DNA of 64,000 nucleotides from Planctomycetota bacterium (lineage in GTDB: Bacteria; Planctomycetota; UBA8742; UBA2392). Numbering within the stretch: position 1 is the stretch's first letter; each line of letters opens with the position of its first letter. The stretch lies in the NCBI GenBank assembly GCA_027493625.1, contig JAOSKM010000003.1, forward strand, positions 599,028-663,027, read 5' to 3'. The translations under genes and the position numbers were made by a program. This document shows, piece after piece, positions 1-46,571 of this stretch. The notes beneath the pieces were generated by a model, which worked only from the letters and a program-made list of their open reading frames with translations, ran no database searches and was not told the DNA's origin.

Positions 1-143
1 TGCGGCAGTAGTTCGCCAAGCTTCATTGCAGCCTGCCGGTAGAGGGCAGTCGCACCGTCCGAATCACCCTTCTTGAGGGACAAGTCTCCCCGAAAGGCAA
101 GTTCTTCGCTCTCGATGCGCAACGGGTGATTCAGGAATTTCAC
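1..143 (-). CDS. partial ORF running off window start; probable third gene of the MTase module (N-term MKFLNHPLRIESEELAFRGDLSLKKGDSDGATALYRQAAMKLGELLP...)
   Basis: Reverse-strand frame open from a GTG at ~143-141 to position 1 with no stop; GTGA start/stop overlap with the upstream 180-aa ORF. Confidence 0.3.
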   Translation of the reverse strand, partial: MKFLNHPLRIESEELAFRGDLSLKKGDSDGATALYRQAAMKLGELLP

Positions 144-3600: not shown

Positions 3601-3708
3601 CCTGCCAACAGATTTCCGCCCCATACCAACCCCAGAATTTCCCGCAACGCTAAGTGGCCGAACAGCATACACACCCGTGCGACATTCCCGCCGCCGCAGG
3701 CCAAGCAA
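682..3708 (-). CDS. Type III Mod-like N6-adenine DNA methyltransferase (beta class) with a ~400-aa C-terminal extension
   Basis: LHWAGK plus MVYIDPPYG (motif IV) followed by FDPTCGSGTT (motif I), the order seen in EcoP15I Mod (LNWLGK, IYIDPPYN); 1008 aa; N-term Lys/Arg/Gly-rich, so the true start may lie up to ~30 codons internal. Confidence 0.8.
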   Translation of the reverse strand: MLGLRRRECRTGVYAVRPLSVAGNSGVGMGRKSVGRGKQAANAGQRSAYGTGKAAPRTKAAQAKRGPKVGGSLKKREIEQYDHDEAKRLNNPDVGLINASTDPDKTPAKKTYAYDPHLDPQLHWAGKAEHTSFDIDAVSLHVHERIDPLSIMQAIKRKNGGPKQLALFERPSEKLGLRDAIDFYRHAHGWSNRLIAGDSLLVMNSLLEKEGLGGQVQMVYIDPPYGIKYGSNFQPFVNKRDVKDRKDEDLTQEPEMIRAFRDTWELGIHSYLTYLRDRLLLARQLLHESGSCFVQISDENLHHVRELMDEVFGAKNCVAVVTVQKTTSSTNVYLSGVGDYLIWYAKDVAKTKYRQLYRIKGLGADGAGHYGMVELPDGTRRSMSDDEQTNPRLLPSGSRPFTASDLTSASVGRDKGPGAACWFPVEVEGKTFLPNEKNRWKTNEEGMARLVAARRAHSQASALRYVRYLDDFPAYALHNIWTDVGGASDKTYVVQTSNAVLQRCLLMTTDPGDLVFDPTCGSGTTAYVAEQWGRRWITCDSSRVAVALAKQRLMTADFDYFDMARPEQGVASGFIYKTVPHVTLKSIANNPEIKSGMTREQIDAAIARHADQETLYDQPKVDKTKVRVTGPFTVEAVPAPAAIAPDELARGGKKLVNLDGKKTLPGMEDPQAKNLIGFTEPVADASVARSGETLRQQEWRDELLKCGIRAKGGAMLHFSRVEPLAGTRWLHAEAETREADAAPKKKTGKVAGANTRKLTAASVGAQRVVISFGPEHAPLEQRQVEKAIDEAYNLKPRPQIVLFASFQFDPEAAKDIDELKADKIGMQVLKVQMNTDLLTDDLKKKRSSNESFWLVGQPDVTVRKLSKDEIKAQKALLEKQLPHDEKRRKAEQAALEGMYVVEVAGFDYYDPRTGKVDGGGADKIAMWMLDTDYDGRSLYPRQVFFPMAGKEEGWAKLAKSLKAELDDDLIEQYRGTVSLPFALGKERTIAVKIIDDRGIESLRVMEVG

Positions 3709-3906
3709 CGCCCGGCGTCGAAGCTCCGGCGCGTCAGGCCCGGCAGAAAGTGGGTGTGCAGCGAAAGCGTTTTACCAAGCCAGAGACGACCGGCCTAGAA
3801 GCACATCCAAAGGCCGGAAAATGGGGGTTTCGTGGGGCAAAAGAAGCTGTTGGAGGCTACGTCAGGCCGCTTACTGCCGATCAGAAACAAAGCCCGTTCA
3901 GGACCG

Positions 3907-4407
3907 CTACTCCTCGAAGATGACGCCGGGAAACGCATTTCGAGCGATTACGAGTTGCTTCTCGAACTTGCCGCGTTTTCCCGGCACGTTCACGTAAGCC
4001 CTGAGGCTCTTCCCCTGCTGCGCAGTTACGCAGACGACGTAGGTCGATTCATCCTCGCCCTTTGCCTCACGTCGCGCAGTCACGAGGTCTTGAAGCTGTT
4101 GGTACGAGATGCAGCAGATTTCACGCGCCCGAACACAGACCAGAACTACAAAGGTCCGCTCGTTCGCTTCGGCAATGCGATCCAGTTCTTCGAGGTGTTC
4201 GGTGGTGAAGCCGAACCTGTACTCGTTGAAGCGGGACTTCGGTTCGTTGCAATACTTGAAGTAGGCGGCGATGTTGTCGTTGATTCGGTAGGCGACCTCA
4301 CTCTTTTTCCCACCAACATTCAGGGCGTTGATGGCTTTGAAGGTTGGATGTTCGGCGATTTGGATCAGGCCCGCCCCGTGGTACATGTGATCGTCGTGGA
4401 TGTGCAT
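3907..4407 (-). CDS. hypothetical protein (166 aa)
   Basis: ORF in a locally lower-GC stretch; the overlapping plus-strand 249-aa ORF looks spurious. Confidence 0.4.
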   Translation of the reverse strand: MHIHDDHMYHGAGLIQIAEHPTFKAINALNVGGKKSEVAYRINDNIAAYFKYCNEPKSRFNEYRFGFTTEHLEELDRIAEANERTFVVLVCVRAREICCISYQQLQDLVTARREAKGEDESTYVVCVTAQQGKSLRAYVNVPGKRGKFEKQLVIARNAFPGVIFEE

Positions 4408-4458
4408 CCGAATTTCTCTCCGGCTTCGACTCGTTCATTTCGCGCAGCAGGTGCTGAA

Positions 4459-6991
4459 CTACGGTACTGCCTGTGCAGAGCCGATTGCGGTGATGCCGAC
4501 CGTATGCCTTTCCAGCGGGAAATTGACCGCCGATGTGGTCGAGCCGCCGACTACAGTTACAGGCGTGGGGATGGTCATTGACGGGTATGCCCCGACCAAA
4601 TCGTTGTGTGTCAGGGAGCCGCTCGTGTCCCGGTCTACGAATCCGACAAGCACGTAGTCCGTCGGGTCCAATCCCGAGATGGTGTAGTTGAAACCTGAGG
4701 CCGCGTCCGTGAACGCCTCTCCATCGGGCTGCCCAGTGGTTGCATTGACTGCTCGGACGCGAACTTGGTAGGTCACCGCCTTGGGAGCCAGCTTGTTCAC
4801 CAGAACCGCAATCACGATGACAGGAGCACTGGAGTCGTTTGTGGAGACTGATGCGACCGCATAGTAGAGATTGCCGTTCGTCAGCAGACCTTGGTTGATC
4901 GACAGCACCACCAAGACCTGTGTGCCGTTCTGTTGCAGCGACACGCCCAACCAGTTCTCCGTGCCGAAGTGCAGCGCCTGCGGGTTGGACACGCTCAATG
5001 TACCGCCACCGATGTTGACGACGCTTGTGTAGGCTGTAGTCGCCCCAGCAGGGACGAGCACAACGCTGTTGGTGACCGCCGCAGTCGGCGGATTCGCGGG
5101 AAGGGTTCCGCCTGCGGCGACAAGCGCAGCCTCTGCCCGCACGAGTCCGAATCCGTACTCTGCGTCGTAGCCAGAGGTACCGAGGTCAAGGGCAGTCCCG
5201 GTCAGCAACGTCCGAACGTTCGTGGGCGTCAGTGCGCCGTTCACAGCGAGCATCAACGCGGCCACGCCCGCCACATGCGGCGCAGCCATCGACGTTCCCT
5301 GTAGCCACTGGTACTTGTTTACGGCGGGCGTCACGGTGTCGTCGCGCCAAGTGCTGAACACACCGTCCTGCGTGGAGAACGGGAAGGTTACTTGGCCCCC
5401 AGGCGCACAAACGGTCGTGCCGCTGGTTGTGTTGCTGTAAATCGCTCGGGAGTAGTTGCGATTGATAGCTCCGACCGCGATGACCTCAGTGTAGGAAGCT
5501 GGGAAATTCGGCGTATTGTCCTGCTGAGCGTCATTTCCGGCCGCGGCTATGATCGTGCAGCCCGCGTTGAACGCCGCAGTTATTGCGTTCTGATACACGG
5601 TCGTGCTGCCTTTGCCGCCGAGCGACATGTTGATGACGTGTGCGCGATTGGGCGGCAGGGTGCCGCTGACGTTGGTCAGCCGAGCGGCATACAGAACGGC
5701 CTCGGCAATGTCGCTCTGCGCGCCACCAGCCGCGCCTAGCACACGAAGTGGCATGATCCTGCAATTCCAGTCAACCCCTGCACCGCCAACGCTGTTGTTC
5801 GACGCAGCGCCGATGGTCCCGGCCACGTGAGTTCCGTGAAAGCTGGAACCCTGTCCGGGCTTATCGCCAGGATCGTCCGGGTTGCTGTCGATGCCGCTGC
5901 CGTCGAGCGCGTTTTGCGGATCGGAAATGAAGTCGTACCCGCCGATGAGCCGCCCTGCGAGGTCTGGATGGCCGAGCACGATGCCGGTGTCAATCACTGC
6001 GACAATCACCGAAGCGGAGCCGGTCGTGATGTTCCACGCCGCTGGTAGGTTCATGGCGTTGTAATGCCACGACTGATAGGCGGAGAAATGGGGGTCGTTC
6101 GGGGTGAGGTAGTGTTCGCAGATGAAATCGGGCTCGGCAACCGCAACGTCGGGATGGAGCGACAAGTGCGCGGAGAGATTTGCCAACTCGACTAGGTGTG
6201 GCAGCGACGAGCGCAACGGGTCGAGCGATGTGGGTTGCTGCCGCTGCGCGACGATAGCTCCGCCTGAGAGCGCCCGAACAGGGGTAAAAGCCGACCGAGG
6301 CGAGGATGTCAACGTAGGCTTGCAGGCTGACGTTCTTTTCAAACGTGACCAGCAAACGATCGGGCACAGCCTCATGCCCAGCGAGAGCGACCTCCATTGC
6401 GTTGTACTCTTCTTTGTAATAGTCAGGCCCCGGCTGCATCATCATAAGGGGGCTGCCACTCAAGACCGTCACGTCCATTCGCCACTGCGTGCCTGCCCCC
6501 GAAAACAGGGTAAGGTCGAAAATGATTGTGGCCCCAGCACCGCCAGCGACGGAAAAGTTCCCGAACTCCGGGTTGGTGGTGCCGTTGAGGGTCAGTAGGT
6601 TTGTTGTGCTCGCCCCGTCGAAACGGCTGACTGTGAGGTCAACGTCTTGGTTTGTCCCGTCAAGCCAACTTATCTTGACGTTGTAGGTTGCCCCGTTGCC
6701 TTCGGTGAAAGTAACGCGGTCCGCTGTGTCGCTGCTGGAAAGAGTTCCGAGCACGAACAGAAGCTCTCCAGCCTTCGGGCCGGTGACCTGCAACGGGCTC
6801 GCGGTTGTGGAGTCAGAAGCCTCCGCGCCAGTGACAACCGGATACTCAGCGAAGGGTGTGATCGTGCCCGAGATGGCCCCTGTTGGCGATCCACCCCCGC
6901 CGCCAGAGCTTCCACCTCCGCCGTCGTCATCTCCTGCACAGCCAGCCAGCATCATTGCGACAAAAACCGCCGACAGTAAGCGGAGTTGCAT
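4459..6991 (-). pseudogene. S8 family subtilisin-like serine peptidase lipoprotein; frameshift at ~6262-6275 (ggcttttacccc)
   Basis: Catalytic triad AVIDTGI..HGTHVAGTI..GTSMAAPHVAG in ORF 4459..6375. Signal/lipobox MQLRLLSAVFVAMMLAGC and an I9-like propeptide (LLVTFEKNVSLQAYVDILASVGF) sit in another frame (ORF 5990..7141); the two join at a T4/C4 run. Confidence 0.75.
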
Positions 6992-7641
6992 GACTACCCC
7001 CACTCCAAAGGTTGTCCCGAGACCGAGTAAATCGCCGATAGGATACGCGAGCCCATACGACTCTGGAAAGCGGAAAAGGTCACCCAACGGCAGATTTGAT
7101 ATGACCGCACGAAGCCTGTTCACGGGTCGAGGGCATCCCAAAGACTCGAACCAACTTTTGCTCGATGGTTGCTTGGTGGCAAGAGGACCGACGAGCCAAC
7201 TACCGTAGACAGAGGAAAACGACGAGCGTGTAAACTGGGATACCGTATCCCAAGCGTCAAGTGGATTGCCGTGGCACTTCCTTGAGGCATTGGCCCCAAG
7301 CGGTTACGCTGGCAGCAGGTTTGGAGACTTGATTGATGGGTTGATCCGGCACTGCCGGAAAAGACGAACGCAATCGCGCACACAACAGCTTTCTGCGGCC
7401 AGAGCAAATCCGCCAGATTTCATATGAGACCGCAGAGCGTGGTGCGCCCCGAAAGGGGCGGCCCGTTCTGCTTCTCATGGGCTCCTGGCGGAGCCTGCTC
7501 TGGGGCGGTTCGGTGTCCGCCCTGTCTTTTTCACTCATGGTGACCGCAGCACGGGTGAGTTCCGGGCGCGGATTCCCGTTCCGCGCTCACTCACGGAGAG
7601 GCGTCCTCTCCGCGTGCTTTCAGCGGGAACAGGAAGAAACA

Positions 7642-8160
7642 ATGACCTACAACGTCATACGGAGTGCGGCGCGTCTGGCAGCACTTCTCACGCTATCGCT
7701 GTCAGTGTTCAGCGGGTGTGCTTCGGGACCCGCACCGATTCCGCGCCTTCAGACTTCGGCGCAGGGGTACTCCGCCGATTTTGATCCTGCCTGGAACGCC
7801 GTCAACGATGTGCTCACGGAAAAGCGGTTGCCAATCAAGGCAATCGAGAAGGAGTCCGGCCTCGTCACCACGGAGTTCGTGAACAGCGGAGCACGATACA
7901 TCTATTGGGGCAAGACAAACGAGGCTGGTCAGGAGATGTCCACGTGGGCGGAAAAGACACGCTACTTCCTGAACATCCGGGTCCGTGAACGCGACGGAGG
8001 GGGCACGACAGTCGATGTCCTGCCACACTTCGAGTACATGCGTTACGAGTACAACTCCGTTCTCAAGCGAAGTGTGGAGGCAGGCTGGGAAGCGTGCGAG
8101 TCCCACGGCGACGTAGAGCGCGAAGTCTACGATGCACTGACGGCAAAGCTAAACCGCTGA
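7642..8160 (+). CDS. lipoprotein, hypothetical
   Basis: Internal start MTYNVIRSAARLAALLTLSLSVFSGC (lipobox) preceded by aggaag. Confidence 0.5.
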   Translation: MTYNVIRSAARLAALLTLSLSVFSGCASGPAPIPRLQTSAQGYSADFDPAWNAVNDVLTEKRLPIKAIEKESGLVTTEFVNSGARYIYWGKTNEAGQEMSTWAEKTRYFLNIRVRERDGGGTTVDVLPHFEYMRYEYNSVLKRSVEAGWEACESHGDVEREVYDALTAKLNR

Positions 8161-8219
8161 ACCATCCGACGGGCGGAGGCACACAAGCTGCCGCCCGCCG
8201 CCGTCAACAGGAGGAGCCG

Positions 8220-9071
8220 ATGACGGTACACGCGATTCGCTGCCCACAATGCAGCGCGGTGCTGGATGTCCAGGCCGGTGCTTCGCTGGTGAGGTGCGGT
8301 TTCTGTTCGACGCCCTGCCGCGTCGATTGGAGCGGTAGTGACCCTGTGGCCACCGAGGAAGCGGGGGAAGTGGCTCGCCTGCTGGACAACATCGATTTCG
8401 ACGCGCTTGAGCAGGGCTTGAAGGAGCTTGAGGAGTACGTTGACCAGCAGAACGCTCGTGACGAACTCGCGTCGAGCGTGGCGCGGCTAGGCACGAGTGA
8501 GCAAATCGACCACCTGGCTGCGCAACTCGCTGCGTCAGGTAAGGCGCATGAATTCATTCAGGGCGTCAGCAACCTGGAAATCGACGAATCCGAAGAACAC
8601 GAAGTCCTGCTTAGGAATCTCCTCGCCCGCGTCGCCGTAAAGGCGGCCACGCAGTCAGATGGCATCGAAACGAGGACGCCTCAACTGAAAGACAATGTCT
8701 TGCACCAGTCAGGTGCGGCAGCGGCACGAACCGACGCCTATCGTGCAGGGTCACGGACCTTCACCGAACCTGCTGCCCCAGACGTCTTTGGCTTGGACGA
8801 GCAGCTTGAGCACAAGGCCAAGCGTTGGCTGTGGCTGCCCTGGGTCGGACTGCTGCTGCTGCCATTAGTCGTGATCGGACTAACCTTCTTGCTGACCATT
8901 GCCATTGCGATCTTGCTGCCACAGCACGAACAAAGGCCCTGGCTGGGTTTGGCCTTCGGTGTTGCAGTGCTCACCTCTCCGGTTGCCGGACTCATCTGGT
9001 TGTGGAGTGGATTGAAAAGACGAAGGTCGTTAGTGGAACAGAGAAGGGCACCACTTGACCGTGCCGGTTGA
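8220..9071 (+). CDS. zinc-ribbon membrane protein, hypothetical
   Basis: MTVHAIRCPQCSAVLD..CGFCSTPC (CxxC x2) with C-terminal TM segments; RBS aggagg. Confidence 0.5.
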   Translation: MTVHAIRCPQCSAVLDVQAGASLVRCGFCSTPCRVDWSGSDPVATEEAGEVARLLDNIDFDALEQGLKELEEYVDQQNARDELASSVARLGTSEQIDHLAAQLAASGKAHEFIQGVSNLEIDESEEHEVLLRNLLARVAVKAATQSDGIETRTPQLKDNVLHQSGAAAARTDAYRAGSRTFTEPAAPDVFGLDEQLEHKAKRWLWLPWVGLLLLPLVVIGLTFLLTIAIAILLPQHEQRPWLGLAFGVAVLTSPVAGLIWLWSGLKRRRSLVEQRRAPLDRAG

Positions 9072-9168
9072 GTTCCCGCCCATCTGATCTTTGACCGCTT
9101 CAAAGACCGGCTGCCGCCACGGGCGTGGCAGCCGGTTTTCCTTTTTCAGGCCCGTACAGGAGATAGTC

Positions 9169-9480
9169 ATGCAGGAGTTCGTTGTGGAGTTCTTCACCGA
9201 GGTGCTTGTGCCTGGGGAGCGTGATCCGCAGCGGGTGTCGCTCAACACATGCATCCTCAGGGGCAAGAGCGAAAGGGCTGTTCAGCTAGAAGCGTTGACG
9301 TTAGTGGACGGAGTTGCAGCCACCGCAGTGGACGCCGTCGGTGATCCGCTGGAGCCTGAGGATGTGCGCGTCGAAGTCACCCCTGTGGACACGTTCCTTG
9401 AACGGCTACGGATAGCGGCGGCCATCGTGCGCAACGATCAGGCCGAGGCGATCAACCGCCACGAGCACGAAGAGGAATAG
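9169..9480 (+). CDS. hypothetical protein
   Basis: ORF with RBS caggagatagtcATG. Confidence 0.35.
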   Translation: MQEFVVEFFTEVLVPGERDPQRVSLNTCILRGKSERAVQLEALTLVDGVAATAVDAVGDPLEPEDVRVEVTPVDTFLERLRIAAAIVRNDQAEAINRHEHEEE

Positions 9481-9553
9481 GCGCAGCCAGCGCAATCGAA
9501 GTTCGTTGACCAGCCGCCGAGTGGCGGCGCTTTTCGTTTTTTAGGAGATCAAC

Positions 9554-9814
9554 ATGACAGACAATCTTGATCGGTTCGACATGGACGCCATCACCGAGGC
9601 GTTCTACAGGTTGGTGACCAGCAAGAAGCCCCAGAAGCTTGGAAAGTTCTTTCGGGACTCTACGGGCCTCCGATGGAAGTACCTTGCGAGGGCCGAAGCC
9701 ACCTATATCGCCAGTCACGGAGAGTTCGGTGTCGTGATGGTCATTCGGGGACAGCCCGACGGCACCAATCAGGTCACGCTCGAACTCAAGAAGTTGCAGG
9801 ACGAGCACAAGTAG
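9554..9814 (+). CDS. hypothetical protein (86 aa)
   Basis: ORF with RBS taggagatcaacATG; lower GC than surroundings. Confidence 0.45.
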   Translation: MTDNLDRFDMDAITEAFYRLVTSKKPQKLGKFFRDSTGLRWKYLARAEATYIASHGEFGVVMVIRGQPDGTNQVTLELKKLQDEHK

Positions 9815-9824
9815 CCTCTGAAAA

Positions 9825-10688
9825 TTGTCGTCGGGTGCGGGTCGCGTTTTGGACTCGCTTCGCTCGTCCAAAACGCGACCCGCACCCGCAGCCATGCAGG
9901 AAACCACGCGAGCAACGCAGGCAGACTTCCACCCGGAAGCCCTGCTGACCGGCGCGTTGGTTTCAGGCACGCACCCGGTATCTGCTCCGGGCGGTCTGCT
10001 CAATCGTGTCTGGCACCTGTTCAACGAAGCCCAGAACAACCGCATCAGCACCGAGCGCGTGCGGGAAATTGTTCGCGGCATTCCTGAACTTCGCCAGATC
10101 GTCGAGCAGTACATCGACCCGGCCACGGGGAAACCACGTGCCGAATGCGCCGACCCGGCTAACCCCGGCATCGTCGCAATGAAAGAGGAAACAGCTTGCT
10201 TCGGCAGGAAGTGCGGTTTCTCAACCGGCTGCTTCCTGCAATGCTCGCTGGGTCCATCACACCGACAGGACGGTCAGCCCCTCGGCGTAGAGGGACAGGC
10301 CCCGGCCTACAACACTGGTGGTCAGCAGCTTGGCCCGGAGCAGTACACAGGCATCCTCAAGGTGGACGAGAACGGCAATCCAAAGAATCCGCCGCGCCAC
10401 CGTGACAACTCGTGCCTGACACTGAGTCTGTTCCTCCGGCTGACGGGCATACCGCCCGCGCATTCAGCCGGGCTGGGAGACAAGCTGTGGGATATTCTCC
10501 CGCAGGCACTGACCGCAGTGGAGCAGGGACTGGCAGCCCAACCACAGCCGACGCCCGCAGCAGCGGCCCCGGCTCCTGCTGTGGGAGACATCAAGCGAGG
10601 TCAGAAGCTCCTTTCCGCTGACCCCTGCACGTGCATTTCGCTGCGCACGTACTGCGTGTCCAGGCGTTGGGATCGGAGGTTGCCATGA
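9825..10688 (+). CDS. hypothetical protein
   Basis: ORF only; start uncertain. Confidence 0.3.
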   Translation: MSSGAGRVLDSLRSSKTRPAPAAMQETTRATQADFHPEALLTGALVSGTHPVSAPGGLLNRVWHLFNEAQNNRISTERVREIVRGIPELRQIVEQYIDPATGKPRAECADPANPGIVAMKEETACFGRKCGFSTGCFLQCSLGPSHRQDGQPLGVEGQAPAYNTGGQQLGPEQYTGILKVDENGNPKNPPRHRDNSCLTLSLFLRLTGIPPAHSAGLGDKLWDILPQALTAVEQGLAAQPQPTPAAAAPAPAVGDIKRGQKLLSADPCTCISLRTYCVSRRWDRRLP

Positions 10689-11644
10689 GCCGGAAGATAG
10701 CGGCGCTGCGCGTACTTTGTGAACGCCGGGTGGCCAAGCGGTTTCAAGAAACGACCAAGGGCATGAAGGCCGAGCAGATCAGCCTCCACCTGCAATCGGT
10801 GTTGGCAGCGGCACTGGTGAATCCCGGCATTGTCGTAGCGGAGATCACTAAGGGAAGGGCGATGGCACTCCAAGTGGGAGGTGTGCGCGGAAGTACGAGG
10901 CCGGTACTGCTTGCGTTGCCATGCAACGGCCAAGAGGAGCGCGAGACTTTTCGGCGACTGGTGATGGCGCTGACCCACGAGGTGTCCGCGCTCGTTACGG
11001 GACCTGTGTTGCCGGATGCCTCAACGGTCGTGCGGGCGCTGATTGCGGAGTGGCTGAAAATCACCACGCTCGAATGGCGCGGCGACCAGTCCGACACCGC
11101 AGAACGCATACGCGGCTCCGTTCCAACGAAGAAGCGAAACGGTCGTTCGCCGAGACGGCGAAGCAAGCCTCGCACCAAGCGTTCCGCACGCACACGACGG
11201 AAAAAGCACATCGAGAAGAAAACCAAGTCGGATTTGGCATCACCACACCCGGACTTTCCAGACGTGAGTGCAAAGCCGATTGACTGGCGACCGGGCAGAC
11301 GAGGGCGACCCCCACGAGGAGCCGTAAGGCGCAGGGACGGAAGCTGGACGATTCCAAAGGGCTTTCGCGTGATCCAGGGAAAGGTGCATCCGCCTCTTAC
11401 GATCACCGGGAAGGCCGTGTCGCTACGGAAAACCTCACCGACATCAAGCCAGAAGGACCGGCACAATCCAGCCCAGCACGCAACCGAAGAGACGGGAAAG
11501 CCCGACACATTCACCTCTGAGGCCGAAGTTCCCCCACAACCGATCTCGGAAGAATCACCGGCCGAGGCACAAACAGAAAAACCTTCGTCATCGGATTCGG
11601 GGACGGAAACGAGTTCCGGCGAAGCCCGCGAAGAGCCCCCATAG
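10687..11644 (+). CDS. hypothetical protein with a Lys/Arg-rich central region
   Basis: ORF; RSPRRRSKPRTKRSARTRRKKHIEKKTK basic tract. Confidence 0.4.
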
Positions 11645-11749
11645 TGCTAGATCGTCACCGCACGGTGTACAGGTCTGCTGACGTTGGCAGAGGCGAGCAC
11701 TAGCTGGCGAGCGGCAGCTTCGTCATCCGTTTCCATCAATCGGTTCAGC

Positions 11750-11830
11750 CCTGTACAAGGTTGCGCCGAGCCGCAAACCTTGTACCCACTACTTGTACCT
11801 ATTGAGTTGGCTCGTGCACTTTCCGTACAA
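11750..11830. repeat. cluster of TGTACA-containing inverted/direct repeats next to the tRNA-Arg 3' end
   Basis: cctgtacaaggttgcg ccgag ccgcaaaccttgtaccc hairpin plus further cttgtacc and ccgtacaag copies. Confidence 0.5.
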
Positions 11831-11833
11831 GCA

Positions 11834-11866
11834 AGCGGCCTCCAGATTGGCTCTGGAGGCCGCTTT
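11834..11866 (+). terminator. rho-independent terminator
   Basis: agcggcctccaga-ttgg-ctctggaggccgc followed by tttt. Confidence 0.7.
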
Positions 11867-11871
11867 TAGGC

Positions 11872-11947
11872 TGGTACACCCGGAAGGAGTCGAACCTTCA
11901 ACCTTCTGATCCGTAGTCAGATGCTCTATCCATTGAGCTACGGGTGC
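11872..11947 (-). tRNA. tRNA-Arg(ACG)
   Basis: GCACCCGTAGCTCAATGGATAGAGCATCTGACTACGGATCAGAAGGTTGAAGGTTCGACTCCTTCCGGGTGTACCA; canonical cloverleaf, encoded CCA. Confidence 0.9.
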
Positions 11948-12149
11948 GTTCGCGGCTGCCTGCGCGGCCGCAAGGGGCAAACGATTACCGCTGTTTGGGG
12001 CGCTTGTCAACTACCGGTCAACCCGGGATACCGCCCCTTGTCCCCGGCCTTACAGGCAACGAATCGCGGTTGCGGCCTGGCGCGGCGGGTCCGTTGACGT
12101 CGCGGCCCTTGCCGGAATAATGGTTGTCTGGATCTTTGCCGGAAACCCG

Positions 12150-13460: not shown

Positions 13461-13665
13461 CAGCCCGGCGCCCACTGTGCCAACCGGGCGCGCTCGCTCG
13501 ATGAAAATCACCTCACGGTCCGAAACGTCGTGCGGGGGCAGCCGGCACACTTCACCTTGCCCGGGATCGTCCCCTCTTCTTCAAACGCGCTCGGGAAACG
13601 TGACCCGTCACGGGTATACTGTTGCAGCGGCCACCATCACGGTCGCGCGGATCGACAGGTTCAAC

Positions 13666-14322
13666 ATGAAACCAGCCCGCACACTGCGGATCGCCACACT
13701 GGCGCTGTTGCTGCTGGCCGTGAGCGCCTGCCCGGAAGACGTGAAGCAGGAGGAGCGCAAGGCCACCCAGGACCTGCTGCTCGACCAGTTCGACGCCACG
13801 AGCTTCCCGACCTCGACCTGGACCATCACCGGCACCGGCACGCTGGTGCAGGACCTTGCCGTCGGCGCGCCCGCGCCGGCCATGCGCCTGGACAGCACCG
13901 GCACACCGGCCGGGCTGATTTCCGCGCCCCTGGAAGCCGGCGCCCACTTCCGAGTCAGTATCGCCATCGACCCCGCGCCCGGCAGCGGCGCCAGCGCCAG
14001 CTTCGTGCTGCGCAACGCGTCGGGCGGCGCGGTGGTGGCCTCGGTCACCGTAGAAGAAGGGCAGATCACGTACGTGATGGGCGCGGCCGCGCCGGTGGTG
14101 AAGACCTGGACCACCGACGGCGCATTCCATGTGTTCGAGTTCGAGGGCAGCAACTCCAGCGTATCCGGCGGCCACTGGTGGAAGCGCGACGGCAGCCTCG
14201 AGGCCAGCCACCTGCAGCCCACGGGCGCCAGCTATATGACCATGGGCCTGGAAGGCACATCTTCAGGTAACGCCTGGTTCGACCATGCCTGGGTATTCCG
14301 ATACCTGGCCTACCCGCACTGA
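13666..14322 (+). CDS. lipoprotein, hypothetical
   Basis: MKPARTLRIATLALLLLAVSAC lipobox start within ORF 13477..14322. Confidence 0.5.
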   Translation: MKPARTLRIATLALLLLAVSACPEDVKQEERKATQDLLLDQFDATSFPTSTWTITGTGTLVQDLAVGAPAPAMRLDSTGTPAGLISAPLEAGAHFRVSIAIDPAPGSGASASFVLRNASGGAVVASVTVEEGQITYVMGAAAPVVKTWTTDGAFHVFEFEGSNSSVSGGHWWKRDGSLEASHLQPTGASYMTMGLEGTSSGNAWFDHAWVFRYLAYPH

Positions 14323-14369
14323 TAACCGCGCCGAGTTTCAGGCGGCGGAGTGCAGTCAGGGGCCACGAA

Positions 14370-14500
14370 AACACGAAATCACAAAAGGTAAGGCCACAAA
14401 AGTCTCGCTGCGATACTGACGGCCGTCGTGCGATGACGTTCAGCGTTTCGTGCGCTTTACTTTCGTGCTTTTGTGCTTTTGTGGCCCAGGCCGCAGTAAT
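14370..14500. repeat. REP-like imperfect palindrome, same family as the 16.9 and 18.3 kb repeats
   Basis: ggccacgaaaacacgaaatcacaaaagg ... cttttgtgcttttgtggcc. Confidence 0.6.
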
Positions 14501-14542
14501 CCCAGCCCTTCCATGCGGCCGGGGCTTCGGCAAACTGCGCCC

Positions 14543-15503
14543 ATGCGAATCTTCCTGACCGGCGCGGCCGGCTTTATCGGCTCTCACCTGGCCCGGGCCC
14601 TGCTGGCCCGCGGCGACAGCGTGGTGGGCTTTGACGACTTCAACGACTTCTATGACCCCGCCATCAAGCGCCGCAACGTGGAAGATACCCGCAAGCTCGG
14701 CGGCGAGTTTCACGTGATCGAGGGCGACCTGCGTGACGCCGAAGACGTCAACGCCGCGCTCGGCGAGGTGGACGTGGTGGTCAACCTGGCGGCCCGCGCG
14801 GGCGTGCGCCCGTCGCTGGAGCAGCCGGTGCTGTACACGGACACCAACGTGCGCGGCCTGGTGCACATCCTGGAAGCCATGCGCGTGCGCGGCCTCAAAA
14901 AGCTGGTGCACGCCAGCTCCAGCAGCGTCTACGGCGGCCAGGAGAAAGTGCCCTTCAGCGAGGACGACCCCATCAACCTGCCCTGGTCGCCCTACGCCGC
15001 CACTAAGCGCAGCAACGAGCTGATGCTCGCCACCTGGCACCACCTGTACGGCATCGAAAGCCACGCGCTGCGCTTCTTCACCGTGTTCGGCCCGGGCCAG
15101 CGGCCGGACCTGGCGATTGCCAAGTTCATCAGCCTGATCGAGCAGGACAAGCCGATCCCCTTTTTTCGGCGATGGCACCACGGGGCGGGACTACACCTTC
15201 ATCGACGACATCGTGCAGGGCGTGGTCGCCAGTATTGACCGTGTCAGCGGCTGCGAGATCATCAACCTAGGCGGCGACGAGCCGGTGACGCTGACGCAGA
15301 TGGTGGAAACCATTGAGCAGGTGATGGGCAAGAAGGCCAAGCTCGACCGCAAGCCGGTGCAGCCCGGCGACGTGCCGCGCACCATGGCCGACGTAAGCAA
15401 GGCCCGCAGGATGCTGGGTTATGAGCCGAAGACCAGCTTTGCGGAAGGTGTTGCGAAGCAATATGAGTGGTGGAAGCAATTCAAAATTCAAAATGCAAAA
15501 TGA
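14543..15503 (+). CDS. NAD-dependent epimerase/dehydratase (UDP-sugar epimerase-like); frameshifted at the T6 run 15143-15148
   Basis: GAAGFIGSHL Rossmann motif, YAATK; removing one T restores ...[42 protein letters not shown], which is in frame with ORF 15213..15503. Confidence 0.8.
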
Positions 15504-15550
15504 AAAAATGGTCACAGCGGGGCAGTGCCATTTTGAATTTTGAATTTGTC
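15488..15550. promoter_or_regulatory. AT-rich compound inverted repeat (CAAAATG/CATTTTG heptamers around a GC core)
   Basis: caaaattcaaaatg ... cattttgaattttg 14-bp exact arms; overlaps the epimerase stop and lies upstream of 15574. Confidence 0.5.
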
Positions 15551-15573
15551 ATTTTGAATTGATTGGAGTCCGC

Positions 15574-16833
15574 ATGCGAACCACGGTTTGCGTGATCCTG
15601 CTGCTTCTGTTTGCTGTTGAGCCTTTGGCTCGGGCTGACGAAAAGCCCAAGGATACGGCCGTTGCGGTCAAGGCTTTTGAGTCCGAGCACTACCGCCTTT
15701 ACACCAACGTGGACGCCGCGACATCCGAGGAATACTCGCGGGTGATTGAGACCGCGTGGCCGCTGCTGGAAGAATTCTTCGGCGCGGCGCCGAAACTCAA
15801 GAAGGGCGAGAAGCTGGACGTCTACTTCCTCGCCAGCCAGGAGGACTGGCAGGCGCAGATGAAGGGCGACGGGGTCGGCATACCGATGGGTGCCGGCGGC
15901 TATTACTGGCCGGGCAACAAGACCGTCTACCTTTGGAAGCAGCCCACGCTGTACACCTCGCGCCAGTTGCTGCTGCACGAGTGCATGCACCAGTTCCATT
16001 ACCTGGCCTGCTGCGACAACAAGGGGCCGAAGGATGTCTGGTACATCGAGGGCGTCGTCGAGCACCTGTCGCGCCACTACTGGGACGGCGAAAAGCTGAC
16101 CCTCGGCGTGGTGCCGTTCTGCAGCCTGGAAGACTACCCGCGCCTCGCGCTCGAGCTGTACCAGCGCGACGACTACGACCTCGCCGCGCTGATCAGCGGC
16201 GAGCGCGCATCCGCCCGCCCCGAGCAATGGGCCCTGGTGCGCTACCTGCTGCAGCAGGGCGATGCCAAGCAGCTCAAGGCCCTGCGCAAGAAGCTGGACG
16301 GCGGGCAGGAAGGCCGCAACGTGTTCAAGAAGCACTTCGGCGACCCCAAGAAACTGCAGCCCAAAATCCACGAGTGGCTCAAGACCCAGCAGGAGCCCTT
16401 TGTGCCGGTCTGGAACGAATGGCAGGGCCAGGGCGCAAACGCGGTGCTGGGCACGGCCGCGGTCACCAGCGCCTGCCGTGCGCGGGAAGACGCGACCGAA
16501 TTGTCGGCCACGCTGCACGTGCCGGAGGGCGCCTGGAAAGGCGGCCTGCTGGTGGGCTTCAGCGATGCCGACAACTACACCGTGGCGCTGCTGAACAGCG
16601 AGGGCGGCTTCAGCATCAACCAGCGCGCGAACGGAACGTGGAACGTGCTCAAGCGCGGCGACGCGCCGCCGGCCGTGGAGGGCAAGTACCGCCTGAAGGC
16701 CGTGCGCAAGGAAGGCAGCATCAGCATCGGCGCAAACGACGTTGAGCTGGGCAGCTTCGAGCTGAAGGGCGCCAAGCTGGGCGTCTGCCTCGAGAACTGC
16801 TCGCTGCGCTTCACGGACATCACCTGGAAGTAG
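15574..16833 (+). CDS. secreted HExxH-motif protein (putative zinc metallopeptidase-like), hypothetical
   Basis: Signal peptide MRTTVCVILLLLFAVEPLARA; HECMH motif. Confidence 0.55.
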   Translation: MRTTVCVILLLLFAVEPLARADEKPKDTAVAVKAFESEHYRLYTNVDAATSEEYSRVIETAWPLLEEFFGAAPKLKKGEKLDVYFLASQEDWQAQMKGDGVGIPMGAGGYYWPGNKTVYLWKQPTLYTSRQLLLHECMHQFHYLACCDNKGPKDVWYIEGVVEHLSRHYWDGEKLTLGVVPFCSLEDYPRLALELYQRDDYDLAALISGERASARPEQWALVRYLLQQGDAKQLKALRKKLDGGQEGRNVFKKHFGDPKKLQPKIHEWLKTQQEPFVPVWNEWQGQGANAVLGTAAVTSACRAREDATELSATLHVPEGAWKGGLLVGFSDADNYTVALLNSEGGFSINQRANGTWNVLKRGDAPPAVEGKYRLKAVRKEGSISIGANDVELGSFELKGAKLGVCLENCSLRFTDITWK

Positions 16834-16892
16834 CTGGCGCTGCAGCAGTCACAAGTTCTGCCTCCTGCAGAATGGTCCGAAACACAACCTCG

Positions 16893-17392
16893 AAGAACGG
16901 CAACTGCATGCTCACGTGGAGGCGCCAAGGCGCCAAGAACTGCAGTGCTTCTCTTGGCGCCTTGGCGGCTTGGCGTGAGGCCGCTGTGCTTTGGTTTTAG
17001 GGGCCACAAAAGCACGAAAACACAAAAGGTACTGCGCACAAAAGCAGCAGCCTTTTCGTGGCGGTTCCTTTGGTGTTTTCGTGTTTTCGTGGCCTGCTGC
17101 AGTTTCCACGAATCGGTCTGAACCGCGAAGTACCGCCAAGCACCGCCAAGCACCGCGAAGAACGGCAACTGCATGCTCACGCGGAGGCGCCAAGGCGCCA
17201 AGAACTGCAGTGCTTCTCTTGGCGCCTTGGCGGCTTGGCGTGAGTCTGCTGTGTTTCGGTTTTGTGGGCCATAAAAGCACCAAAACACAAAAGGTACTGC
17301 GCACAAAAACAGCGGAGCTTTCGTGGCGGTTCCTTTGGTGCTTTGGTGTTTTCGTGGCCTCCTGCAGTTGCTACGAAACGGCGTGAACCGCG
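16893..17392. repeat. two tandem ~260-bp units of a palindrome-containing repeat family
   Basis: Each unit carries the hairpins ggcgccaaggcgccaaga...tcttggcgccttggcg and ggccacaaaagcacgaaaacacaaaagg...cctttggtgttttcgtgttttcgtggcc. Confidence 0.8.
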
Positions 17393-17436
17393 TCGTTCGA
17401 TGCCTACTACTATGTGAGGACTTGGTTGCCGGCGGA

Positions 17437-18207
17437 CTATAGAGTGATTCCCAGCTTCACCGTGAACCAGCTCCCGCCGCCGTTCTCGAATGCGAACCAG
17501 GTCCAGCCGATGTAGACAAACACCGGCGACAGGGGGCGGCCAAGCCTGATGCCCGCGCTGATCTCGGGCTCCGCGAACACCCCAGGGTCGAAGTTGAGGT
17601 TCAAGGCGCCATCCAGGCGGAACTCGACCACACCGACCCCGAAGAACGCCCAGTGTTGCAGCCGCAGGGCGGCGCGGTGGTCCAAGCCTCCTTCACTATG
17701 TGCGAACTGCGTCCCCTCGCCATAGTGGAACCCCAGAGCCAGTCCGGTGCCTCCACTGAACAGTGTCGAGCGCTGCAGCGGGAAGCCGCCGCTGCGTGAC
17801 AGCGACACCTTCCATTCACCCGGTTCGTCTCCGAAGTAATCGACGCCAAAAGAATAACCGCTTGTAATCCAGGCGCGCATCGGGTTGGGACTGACGCCGA
17901 AGCCGCGTTCCCAACCCGCATCGAAAGTCAATTGATGCGGCGCAAGAAGTTTCTGGTTGAAGCTCAACATCGGACCGAACACACGATCCACACCCACCCG
18001 GAACTGCACCTCCGCGCCGTACCAGCCTGAAGAGTCAAAGTCGGAGCGAAACTGCCCTGCGGCATCCAGCAGGAACGGCAACCGCCACGGCGGTGCGATC
18101 TCTGTAGGTGGCGCAGGTGGCTGCGGTGCAGGGGGTACGGGCGGCTGGCCAGCGCATGCTGCGGATAGAAGAACCGAGACAATCAGGATGGCCAGGCGCG
18201 GAAGCAT
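17437..18207 (-). CDS. lipoprotein / outer-membrane-like protein, hypothetical
   Basis: MLPRLAILIVSVLLSAAC lipobox; Gly/aromatic-rich. Confidence 0.55.
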   Translation of the reverse strand: MLPRLAILIVSVLLSAACAGQPPVPPAPQPPAPPTEIAPPWRLPFLLDAAGQFRSDFDSSGWYGAEVQFRVGVDRVFGPMLSFNQKLLAPHQLTFDAGWERGFGVSPNPMRAWITSGYSFGVDYFGDEPGEWKVSLSRSGGFPLQRSTLFSGGTGLALGFHYGEGTQFAHSEGGLDHRAALRLQHWAFFGVGVVEFRLDGALNLNFDPGVFAEPEISAGIRLGRPLSPVFVYIGWTWFAFENGGGSWFTVKLGITL

Positions 18208-18261
18208 CCTCAGGACCTTCGCAGATCGCGGATCAGCGAGGAGTCTAGCAAGACGGAAGCA

Positions 18262-18790
18262 TCATGCTCAACACCAATGACACGGAGCTTGGCTGCCTCG
18301 AGCTGAAGGGCGCTAAGAACTGCAGAGTTGTTCTTGGCGGCTTGGCGTGAGTCTGCTGTGCTTCAGTGTTAGGGGCCACAAAAACACGAAAACACAAAAG
18401 GTACTGCGCACAAAACAGCGGGGCTTTCGTGGCGCTTCCTTTGGTGCTTCCGTGTTTTCGTGGCCTGCTGCAGTTGCCACGAAACGGTTTGAACCGCGAA
18501 GTACCGCCAAGCACCGCGAAGAACGGCAACTGCGTGCTCACGCGGAGGCGCAAAGGCGCCAAGAACTGCAGTGCTTCTCTTGGCGCCTTGGCGTGAGGCC
18601 GCTGTGTTTCGGTTTTATGGGCCATAAAAGCACGAAAACACAGAAGGTACTGCGCACAAAACAGCGAGGCTTTCGTGGCGCTTCCTTTGGTGCTTCCGCG
18701 TTTTCGTGGCCTGCAGCAGTTGCCACGAAACGGCGTGAACCTCGTGGTTCGGAAACTGCATGCCTCGTTTCACCGATAGCACCTGGAAGC
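18262..18790. repeat. second block of two ~260-bp repeat units, flanked by a degenerate copy of the 3' end of gene 15574..16833
   Basis: Direct-orientation copy of 16893..17392; its ends resemble ...SFELKGAK and ENCSLRFTDITWK coding sequence. Confidence 0.8.
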
Positions 18791-18812
18791 GGCGCGGTGC
18801 TGGAAACCACGG

Positions 18813-20777
18813 GTGAACACAGATAAACACGGGCGTGTGGTTCCGTGTCCTTCCGTGTCCCTTGGTGGCTCACTTTCAATGAAGCTGATCGTCGAAATCT
18901 CGCAGGGCCTGGGCAACTGCGTGCAGGGCACGCCGCTGCTGCACGCGCTGTGGCTGATGGGTCACGAGGTTGACCTCTACATCAACAGCCCGATCGCCGA
19001 CAAGCTCAAGCCCCTGTGGGAGAAGTGGGAAATCCTCGGCCGTATCTTCACGCACCACGAGCAGCTCAACATCAAGGACTACGACTTCGGCGTCAGCGCC
19101 TACGGGCGCCGCCAGCTGGTGCGCATGCTCCCTCCCGGCCTGTGCCTGAAGGTCGAGAAGCGCCACGTGCAGCGCCAGAGTGAAACAGAAGCCAACGTCG
19201 AGCTCGCCCGCTGGCTCGGTTATTCCGGGCCCACGCCGCGCTCGCATGTGATCGGTCATGACCCGAACCTGGAACGCCCGCCCGAGCACCGCCACAAGCG
19301 CACCGCGCCGACCGGCGCCGTGGTGGTGCACGCCGGCTGCGACCCCAGCAATGCAGTGAAGCGCTGGCCCTTCTGGCCGGAGATCTGCCGGCGCATCGCG
19401 GACACCGGGCGCGACGTGATCATCGTCGGCACCCACGACGACCGCAGCGAAGAGAACTGGGAAGATGAGTTCGTCTCGCGCTTCCACATGGAACTGCCCG
19501 AGCTGGCGGCGCTGCTTGACGTGTCAAGCTTATACCTGGGCAATGACTCCGGCGTGGGGCACGTGGCGGCCGCCGTCGGCCTGCCGGGCCTGATGCTGTA
19601 CGGCCCCAGCAACCCGGTGAAGAACGCGCCGAACTCAAGCGTGATGCGCACGCTGGTCGCGCCCGGCGAGCAAGGCGAAGAGCGCGACGTGAAGGCCGCC
19701 CGCCCGGTGCCGATCGAGCGCCTGACCGTGGACCAGGTATGGAGCGAGGTCGAGAAGCTTCTCGCCAACCCGCAGCGCGAGCCGGAGCGCGAGCTGCCGC
19801 AGCGCGTGCAGGACTCGCCCGAGGCGCGCTGGGAGCACTACGTGCACATGACCCAGGCGCAGCCGGAGGTGCCCGGCGTTGAAGAACGGGGACAGTCCCC
19901 TGCGGGGACAGTCCCCAAGGTCAGTGTGGTGATCCCCAGCTACAACCGCGCGGACAACCTGGAGCGCGCCGTGAAATCGGCCTTGGCGCAGACCATGACC
20001 GATCTCGAGGTGCTGGTCGTGGACGACGGCAGCACGGACGACACGCCCACGCGCTTCGCCAGCCCGCCGGCGCGCGTGCGCTACATCCGCAAGCCCAACG
20101 GTGGCGCCAGCAGCGCCCGCAACGCCGGCTTGCGCCGCGCGCGCGGCGAATGGATCGCGCTGCTGGACTCCGACGACGAGTGGATGCCCGAAAAACTTGC
20201 CGTGCAGCTCGTGGCCATCGGCGAGCAGTACGTCGCGGCCGCCTCGCGCCACGTGCACGTCAACGCCGACGGCTCGCGCGAGACCAAGCCGGAAATCCTG
20301 CCCGGCCGTGACAACCACCTGTTCCGCGACCTGTACGAGAATCTGTCATTGAAGACCAGCAGCCTGCTGTTCAAACGCCACCTGCTGGAGAAAATGGGCC
20401 TGTTCAACGAGCGCTTTCCCATTTCAAACGACTGGGACTTTTTCCTGAGGCTGGCCCGCGCGGTCAGCAACTCCGGCATGCGCATGGTTGAGCAGGCCCT
20501 GCTGACCGTGCACCGCAGCCCGGACAGCATCAGCAAGGTCGGGCGCGAACGCGCGCTGGAAGAGGCCTACAGCCGCATCTGCATGGTGAACGCCCTGCTG
20601 CACAACCACGACGAGCAGGCCATCCGCATGCACGTCAACCGTGCCGCCCGCAAGCACCTGGAGCTCTCGCGCGCCTACCGCAAGGCCGGCGACAAACACC
20701 AGGCCAAGCACCACGCGAAAGAAGCCATCCGCGCCGGCCTGATGTTGAAGGGCATCTGGCGCTGGCTGCAGGCGTGA
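18813..20777 (+). CDS. bifunctional glycosyltransferase: GT9 (heptosyltransferase-like) N-domain fused to a GT2 C-domain
   Basis: GT9-like ...VVHAGCDPSNAVKRWP..LYLGNDSGVGHVAA; GT2 VSVVIPSYNRADNLERAV..VVDDGSTDDT..DSDDEW; alternative start MKLIVE at 18879. Confidence 0.7.
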   Translation: MNTDKHGRVVPCPSVSLGGSLSMKLIVEISQGLGNCVQGTPLLHALWLMGHEVDLYINSPIADKLKPLWEKWEILGRIFTHHEQLNIKDYDFGVSAYGRRQLVRMLPPGLCLKVEKRHVQRQSETEANVELARWLGYSGPTPRSHVIGHDPNLERPPEHRHKRTAPTGAVVVHAGCDPSNAVKRWPFWPEICRRIADTGRDVIIVGTHDDRSEENWEDEFVSRFHMELPELAALLDVSSLYLGNDSGVGHVAAAVGLPGLMLYGPSNPVKNAPNSSVMRTLVAPGEQGEERDVKAARPVPIERLTVDQVWSEVEKLLANPQREPERELPQRVQDSPEARWEHYVHMTQAQPEVPGVEERGQSPAGTVPKVSVVIPSYNRADNLERAVKSALAQTMTDLEVLVVDDGSTDDTPTRFASPPARVRYIRKPNGGASSARNAGLRRARGEWIALLDSDDEWMPEKLAVQLVAIGEQYVAAASRHVHVNADGSRETKPEILPGRDNHLFRDLYENLSLKTSSLLFKRHLLEKMGLFNERFPISNDWDFFLRLARAVSNSGMRMVEQALLTVHRSPDSISKVGRERALEEAYSRICMVNALLHNHDEQAIRMHVNRAARKHLELSRAYRKAGDKHQAKHHAKEAIRAGLMLKGIWRWLQA

Positions 20778-46245: not shown

Positions 46246-46246
46246 G

Positions 46247-46474: not shown

Positions 46475-46571
46475 GCGGTGTAGGGACACGCTGCCGCGTG
46501 TCCCTACGTTCCCGGTTTTCGCTTTCGAAGGACGGGGACAGTCCCGAACTTCCGAGACAGTCCCCTTCCGA

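Follow-up and report, generated by a model that had tools for sequence, protein, structure and literature searches.

In a 64-kb stretch of the Planctomycetota contig JAOSKM010000003.1 (the window, whose coordinates are used throughout), four noncoding units of ~245 to 265 bp, each carrying two long hairpins, stand in two blocks of the same orientation (A and B) that bracket a lipoprotein gene next to the gene for an HExxH protein. These units represent, in local tandem form, a modular family of extragenic palindromic repeats that is specific to its clade, a narrow group of uncultured Planctomycetota. As judged by comparison with related loci, units A, the lipoprotein gene, a pseudo 3' end of the HExxH gene, and units B form a lineage-specific insertion, and the locus as a whole is a real, well-documented, and fairly ordinary repeat-associated genome rearrangement.

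Tandem Repeats Finder reported a period of 265 bp across positions 16887 to 17392 (1.9 copies, 90% matches, score of 851). A repeat search of the window aligned unit A1 (16887-17127) with unit A2 (17152-17392) at 90% and unit B1 (18306-18498) with unit B2 (18552-18744) at 89%, all in the same orientation. The tandem, same-orientation units that an initial annotation of this DNA had placed on either side of the lipoprotein gene were therefore recovered, at slightly shifted coordinates. Mean column identity across the four aligned units was 83%, with B1 lacking its first ~45 nt, and the closest cross-species match of A2 (92%) was the sole A unit of the sister metagenome-assembled genome (MAG) Bin_90R (locus L008, with proteins 91 to 97% identical to those of the window). 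The A1 linker consists of the 10-nt word ACCGCSAAGN repeated four times at 17122-17160, and 45 nt separate the end of A2 from the stop codon of the lipoprotein gene. This 2.2-kb arrangement is not an assembly artifact, as two independent assemblies, an NCBI MAG contig (GCA_013328875.1) and a JGI metagenome contig, contain positions 16700 to 18900 at 99.95% identity (one mismatch and no gaps).

The open reading frames (ORFs) called within the units are artifacts, as the initial annotation had held: no frame stays open throughout nine units (seven from this locus in the window and Bin_90R and two from Bin_90R locus L006), and the NCBI and JGI gene calls pass over the units, from which spurious ORFs of up to 243 amino acids (aa) arise. 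In practice, the units also fragment short-read assemblies. Eight of the 10 contigs listed for the HExxH gene end 34 nt into A1, and in many samples the lipoprotein gene is found alone on contigs of ~1.2 kb.

The two hairpins per unit that had been noted from the letters were confirmed by RNA folding, in which one unit adopted both of them at −133 kcal/mol (z = −6.3), whichever strand was folded. Hairpin 1 is ~70 nt long with arms of 28 to 36 nt, while hairpin 2 is ~93 to 105 nt long with arms of 43 nt, and the hairpin feet read GCTCACGCGGAGG...GGCGTGAG and GGGGCCAC...GTGGCC. With up to three mismatches allowed, the hairpin-2 arm motif occurs six times in the window, compared with none expected from 100 shuffles, and the hairpin-1 arm motif occurs nine times, compared with 0.21 expected; within the window, both motifs are confined to this locus.

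We then scanned a strict IUPAC pattern of the hairpin-2 arm over one genome per prokaryotic species and found matches in only two MAGs, both from Planctomycetota: Bin_90R, with 13 stretches on 10 contigs, and HK-STAS-PLAN-36, with 4 stretches. These copies in sister species bear out the earlier proposal of a repeat family with other genomic members. A BLAST search of the unit against the matched loci found full two-hairpin tandem units at L006 and L008, hairpin 2 by itself at more than 10 places, and hairpin 1 by itself at L013, and many of the solo copies have the 10-nt word linker beside them. Arms come in two subtypes and flanks in two types, combined in various ways, which makes the family a mosaic built from a small number of motifs. 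Some copies occupy orthologous positions across species (L003 and L014; the window, L008, and lineage J, which is represented by JGI metagenome loci L051 and L053). A degenerate copy of the unit had been reported at 14370-14500 of the window; a copy does exist there (14358-14487), but it is a module made of hairpin 2 only. A gene for a lipoprotein of 218 aa ends 36 nt before it, and the epimerase gene starts 55 nt beyond it. The module is kept in Bin_90R (L008 7272-7398) and is absent from the 38- to 40-nt spacer found in more distant relatives.

The insertion at the HExxH gene became apparent from such relatives. At loci L028, L029, and L030, whose HExxH proteins are 67 to 77% identical to that of the window, the genes run epimerase, HExxH, a spacer of 77 to 130 nt, glycosyltransferase, and PEMT; the spacer holds an unrelated hairpin of its own, and neither the units nor the lipoprotein gene is present there. 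In three lineages (the window, Bin_90R, and J), ~1.9 kb lies between the HExxH and glycosyltransferase genes. The compact order in the more distant relatives indicates that this segment is an insertion specific to these lineages.

The HExxH protein has 91 homologs of ~420 aa, all from Planctomycetota, and its C-terminal coding sequence is kept in outgroups. We refer to the two halves of the gene end (16706-16833) as P1 and P2. Within the window, positions 18248 to 18317 match 16706 to 16776 at 75% (E = 3e-7), and positions 18754 to 18789 match 16795 to 16830 at 78% (E = 0.006); these are the top two nonself matches of the last 134 nt of the gene in the entire 64 kb, and they lie in the correct order and orientation. 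The first, a pseudo-copy, starts ~40 nt past the lipoprotein start codon, at the equivalent of 16706, and in the window it joins B1 at a 9-nt repeat, GGCGCYAAG, that is common to the gene and the hairpin-1 arm. The second is the original gene end, as indicated by three observations: the start of the glycosyltransferase gene (18879) follows it after 89 nt, a distance in line with the 77 to 98 nt of relatives that lack the insertion; the spacer between them contains the same hairpin as in the sister lineages; and the corresponding remnant in lineage J retains its TAG and matches the functional end at 89.8% identity. The functional and pseudo gene ends share lineage-specific states, and no duplicated gene end was found beside the units at other loci.

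According to the initial annotation, block B was embedded in one degenerate copy of the gene end. Two 3'-end pieces do flank the block, but the distal piece is the original end, and a copy split by the block is found in the window lineage only, where it may or may not be ancestral. In Bin_90R and J, the pseudo-copy is unbroken (P1'P2') and is followed by a spacer homologous to the spacer A of J and then by the units, with the original remnant lying separately after them. The features of the locus are listed in Table 1.

Table 1. Coordinates of the genes, gene-end copies, spacers, and repeat modules at the locus
Feature	Position	Strand	Remarks
Solo hairpin-2 module	14358..14487	.	Arms ~14361-14403 and 14445-14487; enlarged loop
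HExxH protein gene, 419 aa	15574..16833	+	Last ~43 codons (16706-16833, P1 and P2) duplicated downstream
Spacer A, stop codon to first unit	16834..16886	+	3' part like a unit tail
Unit A1	16887..17151	+	Hairpin 1 arms 16911-16938 and 16952-16979; hairpin 2 arms 17002-17044 and 17052-17094; tail; linker
Unit A2	17152..17392	+	Hairpin 1 at 17168-17252; hairpin 2 at 17267-17359
Lipoprotein gene, 256 aa	17437..18207	-	Signal peptide with lipobox LSAAC; cargo of the insertion
Pseudo-copy P1' of 16706-16776	18248..18317	+	Joins loop side of B1 hairpin 1 at GGCGCTAAG/AACTGCAG
Unit B1, 5' truncated	18318..18512	+	Hairpin-1 remnant to 18347; hairpin 2 at 18374-18465; linker 18493-18527
Unit B2	18513..18748	+	Hairpin 1 at 18537-18597 (8 nt shorter); hairpin 2 at 18620-18711
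Remnant P2'', original last ~13 HExxH codons	18749..18789	+	Stop mutated in the window, TAG kept in lineage J
Original HExxH-glycosyltransferase spacer	18790..18878	+	Own unrelated word-periodic hairpin at ~18800-18860

The units are thus not unique to this locus, and the structural variants anticipated by the initial annotation exist between lineages. Blocks A and B hold 2 and 1.8 units in the window, 1 and 2 in Bin_90R, and 1 and 1 in J, in which hairpin 2 is internally deleted. Derived bases are common to all of the units of one genome, in both blocks. When Bin_90R and J were compared (L051 7260-7710 against the reverse strand of L008), a tract of ~450 nt that runs from the 5' end of the lipoprotein gene through the pseudo-copy and spacer B to 50 nt into a unit was ~99% identical, between flanks of 80 to 92% identity. 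This tract is probably a recent import through recombination between lineages, ending within a unit. These alignments document gene conversion, variation in the number of units, and deletions at stretches of microhomology.

Two scenarios fit the differences in the pseudo-copy. Either the contiguous pseudo-copy would be ancestral and the window would have lost part of it by microhomology deletion, or the split state would be ancestral and the ancestor of Bin_90R and J would have refilled it from block A by gene conversion. The second requires fewer events and would explain in one go why P2' is so well preserved, why the spacer is of the A type, and where the derived CAG.G.AAC states came from. 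Parsimony does not decide between the two, because the lineages are roughly equidistant and the locus is a mosaic.

We infer the following course of events. The ancestral order would have been epimerase, HExxH, a spacer of ~80 to 100 nt, and glycosyltransferase. Before the three sister lineages split, a segment of ~1.9 kb, consisting of repeat units and a lipoprotein gene relocated from elsewhere, would have entered the last ~40 codons of the HExxH gene, the end of which would have stayed intact through duplication of its last ~130 nt. The displaced copies would then have decayed, leaving the pseudo 3' end (18248-18317) and the stranded original end (18749-18789). Gene conversion between the unit blocks, gain and loss of units, and internal deletions at short repeats have followed since.

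The lipoprotein gene itself has few relatives. Its product matched no Pfam, NCBIfam, or integrase model, and its homologs form only three clusters among 5.8 billion proteins. In relatives, the gene is divergently oriented beside an extracytoplasmic function (ECF) sigma factor gene, with no units nearby, a setting which implies that it was relocated or copied into the present site. With a ratio of nonsynonymous to synonymous divergence (dN/dS) of 0.075, it is under purifying selection. Its dS between the window (17437-18207) and Bin_90R (L008 3683-4456) is 0.86, compared with 0.28 to 0.32 for neighboring genes, and its G+C content at third codon positions (GC3) is 0.73, compared with 0.89 to 0.92. 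The high dS and low GC3 could reflect mosaic ancestry or relaxed codon bias. Pairwise identities are 91.7% between the window and J, 89.2% between Bin_90R and J, and 82.6% between the window and Bin_90R.

It had also been proposed that recombination between the blocks would delete the lipoprotein gene and swap the C terminus of the HExxH protein. A crossover between units, which are 86 to 92% identical, would indeed delete the lipoprotein gene together with P1', but it would leave the HExxH C terminus untouched because the units lie 3' of the stop codon. From the sequences, only a crossover within the 66-nt, 74%-identical P1/P1' would alter the C terminus, giving a truncated tail that ends in ...ELKGAKNCRVVLGGLA and a stop. 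A variant without the lipoprotein gene was not found in any unit-bearing assembly, although this is a weak test because short-read contigs break at the units; exact-protein look-ups returned only the window arrangement or contigs broken in this way, and for the glycosyltransferase protein they returned no record. A metagenome scan for the variant gave one locus, L028 (HExxH 67% identical), in which HExxH is followed directly by glycosyltransferase.

Gene content nearby varies as well. Lineage J lacks the 218-aa lipoprotein gene and the adjoining hairpin-2 copy (window 13470-14500; L051 ~3926-3945); its junction reads TAGCAGCCC/AGCCCTTCC, and the missing segment is bounded by short CCC/AGCCC repeats. 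In a distant relative (L056 6703-10304), a DUF6165 gene lies between HExxH and glycosyltransferase, and another (L055 5680-8580) has no HExxH gene, with glycosyltransferase coming straight after epimerase. Gene content at the HExxH-glycosyltransferase junction varies across the phylum.

What might the hairpins do? Between the window and Bin_90R, the arms show 0.02 to 0.08 differences per site, whereas the loops and the spacer between hairpins show 0.25 to 0.29, which is like the synonymous differences (pS) in the HExxH and glycosyltransferase genes (0.23 to 0.26). The arms have thus diverged 3 to 10 times more slowly than the loops or neighboring synonymous sites, implying that they are constrained. 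At 12 of the 19 places examined, the element begins no more than 70 nt after the stop codon of a long, high-GC3 ORF, and it often lies between convergent genes. Arm constraint and position after stop codons together favor a role at 3' ends, in termination or in protection from 3' exonucleases, as described for repetitive extragenic palindromic (REP) sequences and bacterial interspersed mosaic elements (BIMEs) and for enterobacterial repetitive intergenic consensus (ERIC) elements (PMC3184786). By analogy with these elements, we infer that the hairpins probably function as terminators or as exonuclease barriers that stabilize transcripts and, being long and repeated, that they also serve as substrates for homologous and microhomology-mediated recombination.

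Several observations weigh against this interpretation. The hairpins have no T run, and consensus terminators are not enriched (7 found versus 6.8 expected in shuffles). Seven of the 19 places examined are not near a stop codon, and block B does not lie 3' of any intact gene. Covariation is essentially nil, with a double change in 1 of 27 predicted pairs and most pairs invariant. Mismatches recur at fixed positions in about half of the copies, and G.U and A.C mismatches are balanced (24 versus 26), giving no strand asymmetry. The recurrent mismatches and the lack of asymmetry mean that the constraint could be on sequence, as in a protein-binding site, rather than on RNA structure; for mismatches at fixed positions, a protein that binds a particular sequence would be at least as good an explanation as a 3'-end hairpin role. 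Dispersal was seen in the genomes of sister species, which were the ones scanned.

A strand-specific RNA signal was rejected on the basis of the balanced mismatches and of element orientation relative to a single gene reading into the element (6 versus 2, not significant). Known RNA families were also ruled out. In a search of Rfam 15, only tRNAs reached the gathering score in the window, nothing of the repeat was represented, and the best results for 14300-18900 were chance matches to microRNA precursors (E = 0.2 to 0.5).

Instead of having a 3'-end function, the units might be selfish mobile DNA resembling miniature inverted-repeat transposable elements (MITEs), with no host function and a transposase acting in trans, and the locus might be insertion debris. 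We regard this as unlikely. The family is dispersed, noncoding, palindromic, and confined to a narrow clade, its long arms could act as terminal inverted repeats, and the hairpin-2 copy at 14358, being absent from the short spacer of distant relatives, must have been inserted at some point. The sequence AACTGC/GCAGTT recurs at module borders, as would be expected of a preferred target or cleavage site, although it may belong to the element. However, the flanks of 25 oriented copies revealed no variable direct repeat, so no target site duplication could be defined, and no transposase was found near the locus in the window or at any locus with a family copy. The orthologous placement of copies across species suggests that they are old rather than recently mobile, and the slow divergence of the arms would not be expected of inert DNA.

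Phage or plasmid origin was ruled out as well, since neither hairpin matched a viral contig and no plasmid match was found. A link to a REP-associated tyrosine transposase (RAYT) was rejected on the basis of a tblastn search with the sole Y1_Tnp domain seen (L029 2764-3243), which gave no match in the window or at the loci with family copies. At L029 2700-3330, this 159-aa Y1 transposase (PF01797) lies between inverted GTAGCCCCCGGCGT.AGCTGGGGGCAT hairpins of the GTAG type, forming a classic REP/RAYT-like unit that is unrelated in sequence to the family studied here.

The AACTGC/GCAGTT hexamer occurs at the unit start, in the hairpin-1 loop, and in the unit tail (for example, at 16902-16907, 16936-16941, and, in reverse, 17100-17105), on both sides of solo hairpin-2 elements (the L004, L009, and L013 copies), and in the 3' end of the HExxH gene, exactly at the boundary between the array and the original remnant. 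The hexamer may serve as a motif for recombination or as a target.

The internal architecture of the hairpins raised another alternative. All three modules (hairpin 1, hairpin 2, and the linker) are built from tandem arrays of the heptad CRCNAAR at a spacing of 8 or 10 nt: CGCCAAGG.CGCCAAGA in hairpin 1, CACAAAAG.CACGAAAA.CACAAAAGG in hairpin 2, and three to four copies of ACCGCGAAGN in the linker. Arrays of at least three such words number 10 in the window, all within family copies, compared with none in 200 shuffles. The CAC and AAA triplets are invariant in 17 hairpin-2 copies, about half of which have N and R unpaired; one arm of hairpin 2 is more conserved than the other (entropy of 0.20 versus 0.40); and independent hairpins of CRCNAAR words are found in outgroup genomes. 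All of this would be expected if the modules were arrays of binding sites, in double-stranded DNA or single-stranded RNA, for a clade-specific protein recognizing CRCNAAR, with the palindromes simply being head-to-head site arrays. We nevertheless find this improbable, since no candidate protein is known, a spacing of 8 nt puts the sites off one face of the helix, and other hairpins of the clade use quite different words, which a hairpin-building mutational process would fit better.

A more elaborate version, which we likewise consider improbable, would make CRCNAAR the recognition word of a clade-specific nucleic acid-binding protein or recombinase. The arrays would then be functional protein-loading sites rather than mere terminator hairpins, for example, for a hairpin-dependent recombination or gene relocation that moved the lipoprotein gene into the tail of the HExxH gene while regenerating the gene end. 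The heptad-word architecture is a real and concrete oddity.

Other intergenic hairpins of the clade likewise have arms made of 7- to 10-nt direct repeats but of other words (TTCAAAA, CACGGGTGAA, GGTTGATAGT, and CACGAAT). They were seen at 15474-15564 and 18800-18860 of the window, at ~7290-7370 of L029, and at ~1435-1520 of L028, and the orthologous HExxH-glycosyltransferase spacer has a different word hairpin in each species.

That the lipoprotein gene and the units entered as a site-specifically integrated cassette, of the integron or icd type, carrying a replacement 3' end is very improbable. The layout, with copies of the target 3' end flanking the insert and the original end displaced distally, is the classic one for 3'-end integration; one small gene, bordered by a palindromic element on its 3' side, makes up the cargo; and the same junction has taken other cargo, DUF6165, in the distant relative represented by L056. 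Yet no integrase gene lies beside the locus (window 1-22 kb and L018), no attC-type R'/R'' cores are present at the hairpin feet, and at no other locus does a duplicated gene end adjoin the units. Furthermore, spacer and units are part of the duplicated block, as would fit recombination of a homologous or duplicative kind. The 218-aa gene with its hairpin 2 was considered as a second gene-plus-hairpin cassette and rejected: distant relatives have this gene directly 5' of the epimerase gene, implying that an ancestral resident was deleted in lineage J.

Finally, although the window contains at least one probable homopolymer error and short-read assemblies break at the units, the notion that errors of assembly or sequencing produced the tandem units and the duplicated gene end has next to no likelihood, being refuted both by the two independent assemblies, which agree over the entire 2.2 kb, and by the two sister lineages, which have the same architecture with substitutions of their own.

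Some features elsewhere in the window deserve mention. A T6 run at 15159-15164 shifts the reading frame of the epimerase gene (14543-15503). In three further assemblies of this organism, the run is T5 and the 319-aa epimerase is intact; the T6 is probably a homopolymer sequencing error in the window. Positions 1 to 12000 have a lower G+C content (57 to 63%), encode a 1,008-aa DNA methylase, a subtilase, and several ORFs without a family, and end at a tRNA-Arg gene (11872-11947). In lineage J (L051 1-1647), a phage-type integrase gene and a DUF4145 gene lie upstream of a kinase gene. The first 12 kb may be a genomic island at tRNA-Arg. Just one long hairpin of the window is perfect, a 23-nt inverted repeat at 9832-9888 (CGGGTGCGGGTCGCGTTTTGGAC and its complement, separated by a loop of 11 nt). 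On the minus strand, 15 tRNA genes (Trp, Gln, Met, Lys, Val, Pro, Arg, Glu, Asp, Ile, Arg, Ala, Gly, Phe, and His) lie within 2.8 kb (46177-48931), and some spacers of this array contain short hairpins (47206-47254 and 47861-47909).

For the poorly known, uncultured Planctomycetota of activated sludge, these results add an extragenic palindromic repeat family characterized by defined modules, by comparative evidence of arm constraint, and by one locus with a datable history. The locus illustrates how repeats can accompany the gain of a gene in the tail of a conserved gene without destroying that gene and can then drive conversion, copy number change, and deletions at microhomologies.

How does the family compare with systems described previously? 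Prophage e14 and phage 21 integrate at the 3' end of icd in Escherichia coli and bring a replacement end with them. As in that case, the target gene at our locus is intact by virtue of a proximal copy of its 3' end, and the displaced original end persists as a distal pseudo-fragment, with both junctions here carrying end copies. Unlike that case, no recombinase is encoded on the insert or nearby, there is no defined att core, the cargo is one gene with repeats, three end copies are present rather than two, and the duplication extends to the spacer and units, a sign of homologous or duplicative recombination. A likeness to integron attC arrays and to clusters of attC sites lacking integrases (CALINs) lies in the small, promoterless-looking ORF followed by an imperfect palindrome and in the repeats that flank it. 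In contrast to those systems, the hairpin feet have no RYYYAAC/GTTRRRY cores, there is no intI (window 1-22 kb and L018), elements of the family also follow housekeeping genes, and the flanks hold a duplicated piece of the neighboring gene. Each module resembles a MITE in being a long imperfect inverted repeat around a short noncoding core.

The closest parallels are among the extragenic palindromes. ERIC elements are imperfect palindromes of ~127 bp, about the size of hairpin 2, that occupy transcribed intergenic regions at moderate copy number (PMC3184786). They differ in sequence and phylum, have been described with TA-flanked ends and target duplications, of which none could be defined for the family, and lack tandem heptad words and 265-bp tandem units carrying a second hairpin. 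Wilson and Sharp in 2006 reportedly described internal insertions in ERIC elements and copies conserved at orthologous sites between species; the module at 14358-14487 and the L003/L014 copies are parallels to these. The REP sequences and BIMEs of enterobacteria and pseudomonads are dispersed extragenic palindromes that occur singly or in mosaic clusters, favor gene 3' ends and convergent genes, and are implicated in mRNA stability and recombination (PMC3184786, PMC3733652), and the family is likewise extragenic, dispersed, and palindromic, with modules alone or combined (17 stretches in the two MAGs) and a bias toward gene 3' ends and convergent pairs. A REP palindrome has a conserved GTAG or CGTC tetranucleotide at one end (PMC3733652), a tag that is absent from the hairpin feet of the family, which shows no sequence similarity to REP. 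REP sequences are also G+C rich, only 20 to 40 bp long, and often linked to RAYTs, whereas the family hairpins are 65 to 105 nt long and lack a neighboring RAYT. In Streptococcus pneumoniae, BOX elements (boxA-boxB(n)-boxC) are modular, transcribed intergenic repeats with a variable number of modules and stable folds (PMC3184786), as is seen for the units, but there is no homology, the module logic is different, and BOX elements are thought to be mobilized by an insertion sequence transposase, for which no counterpart was identified here. Taken together, these comparisons indicate that the family behaves like REP/BIME, ERIC, or BOX elements without belonging to any of the three.

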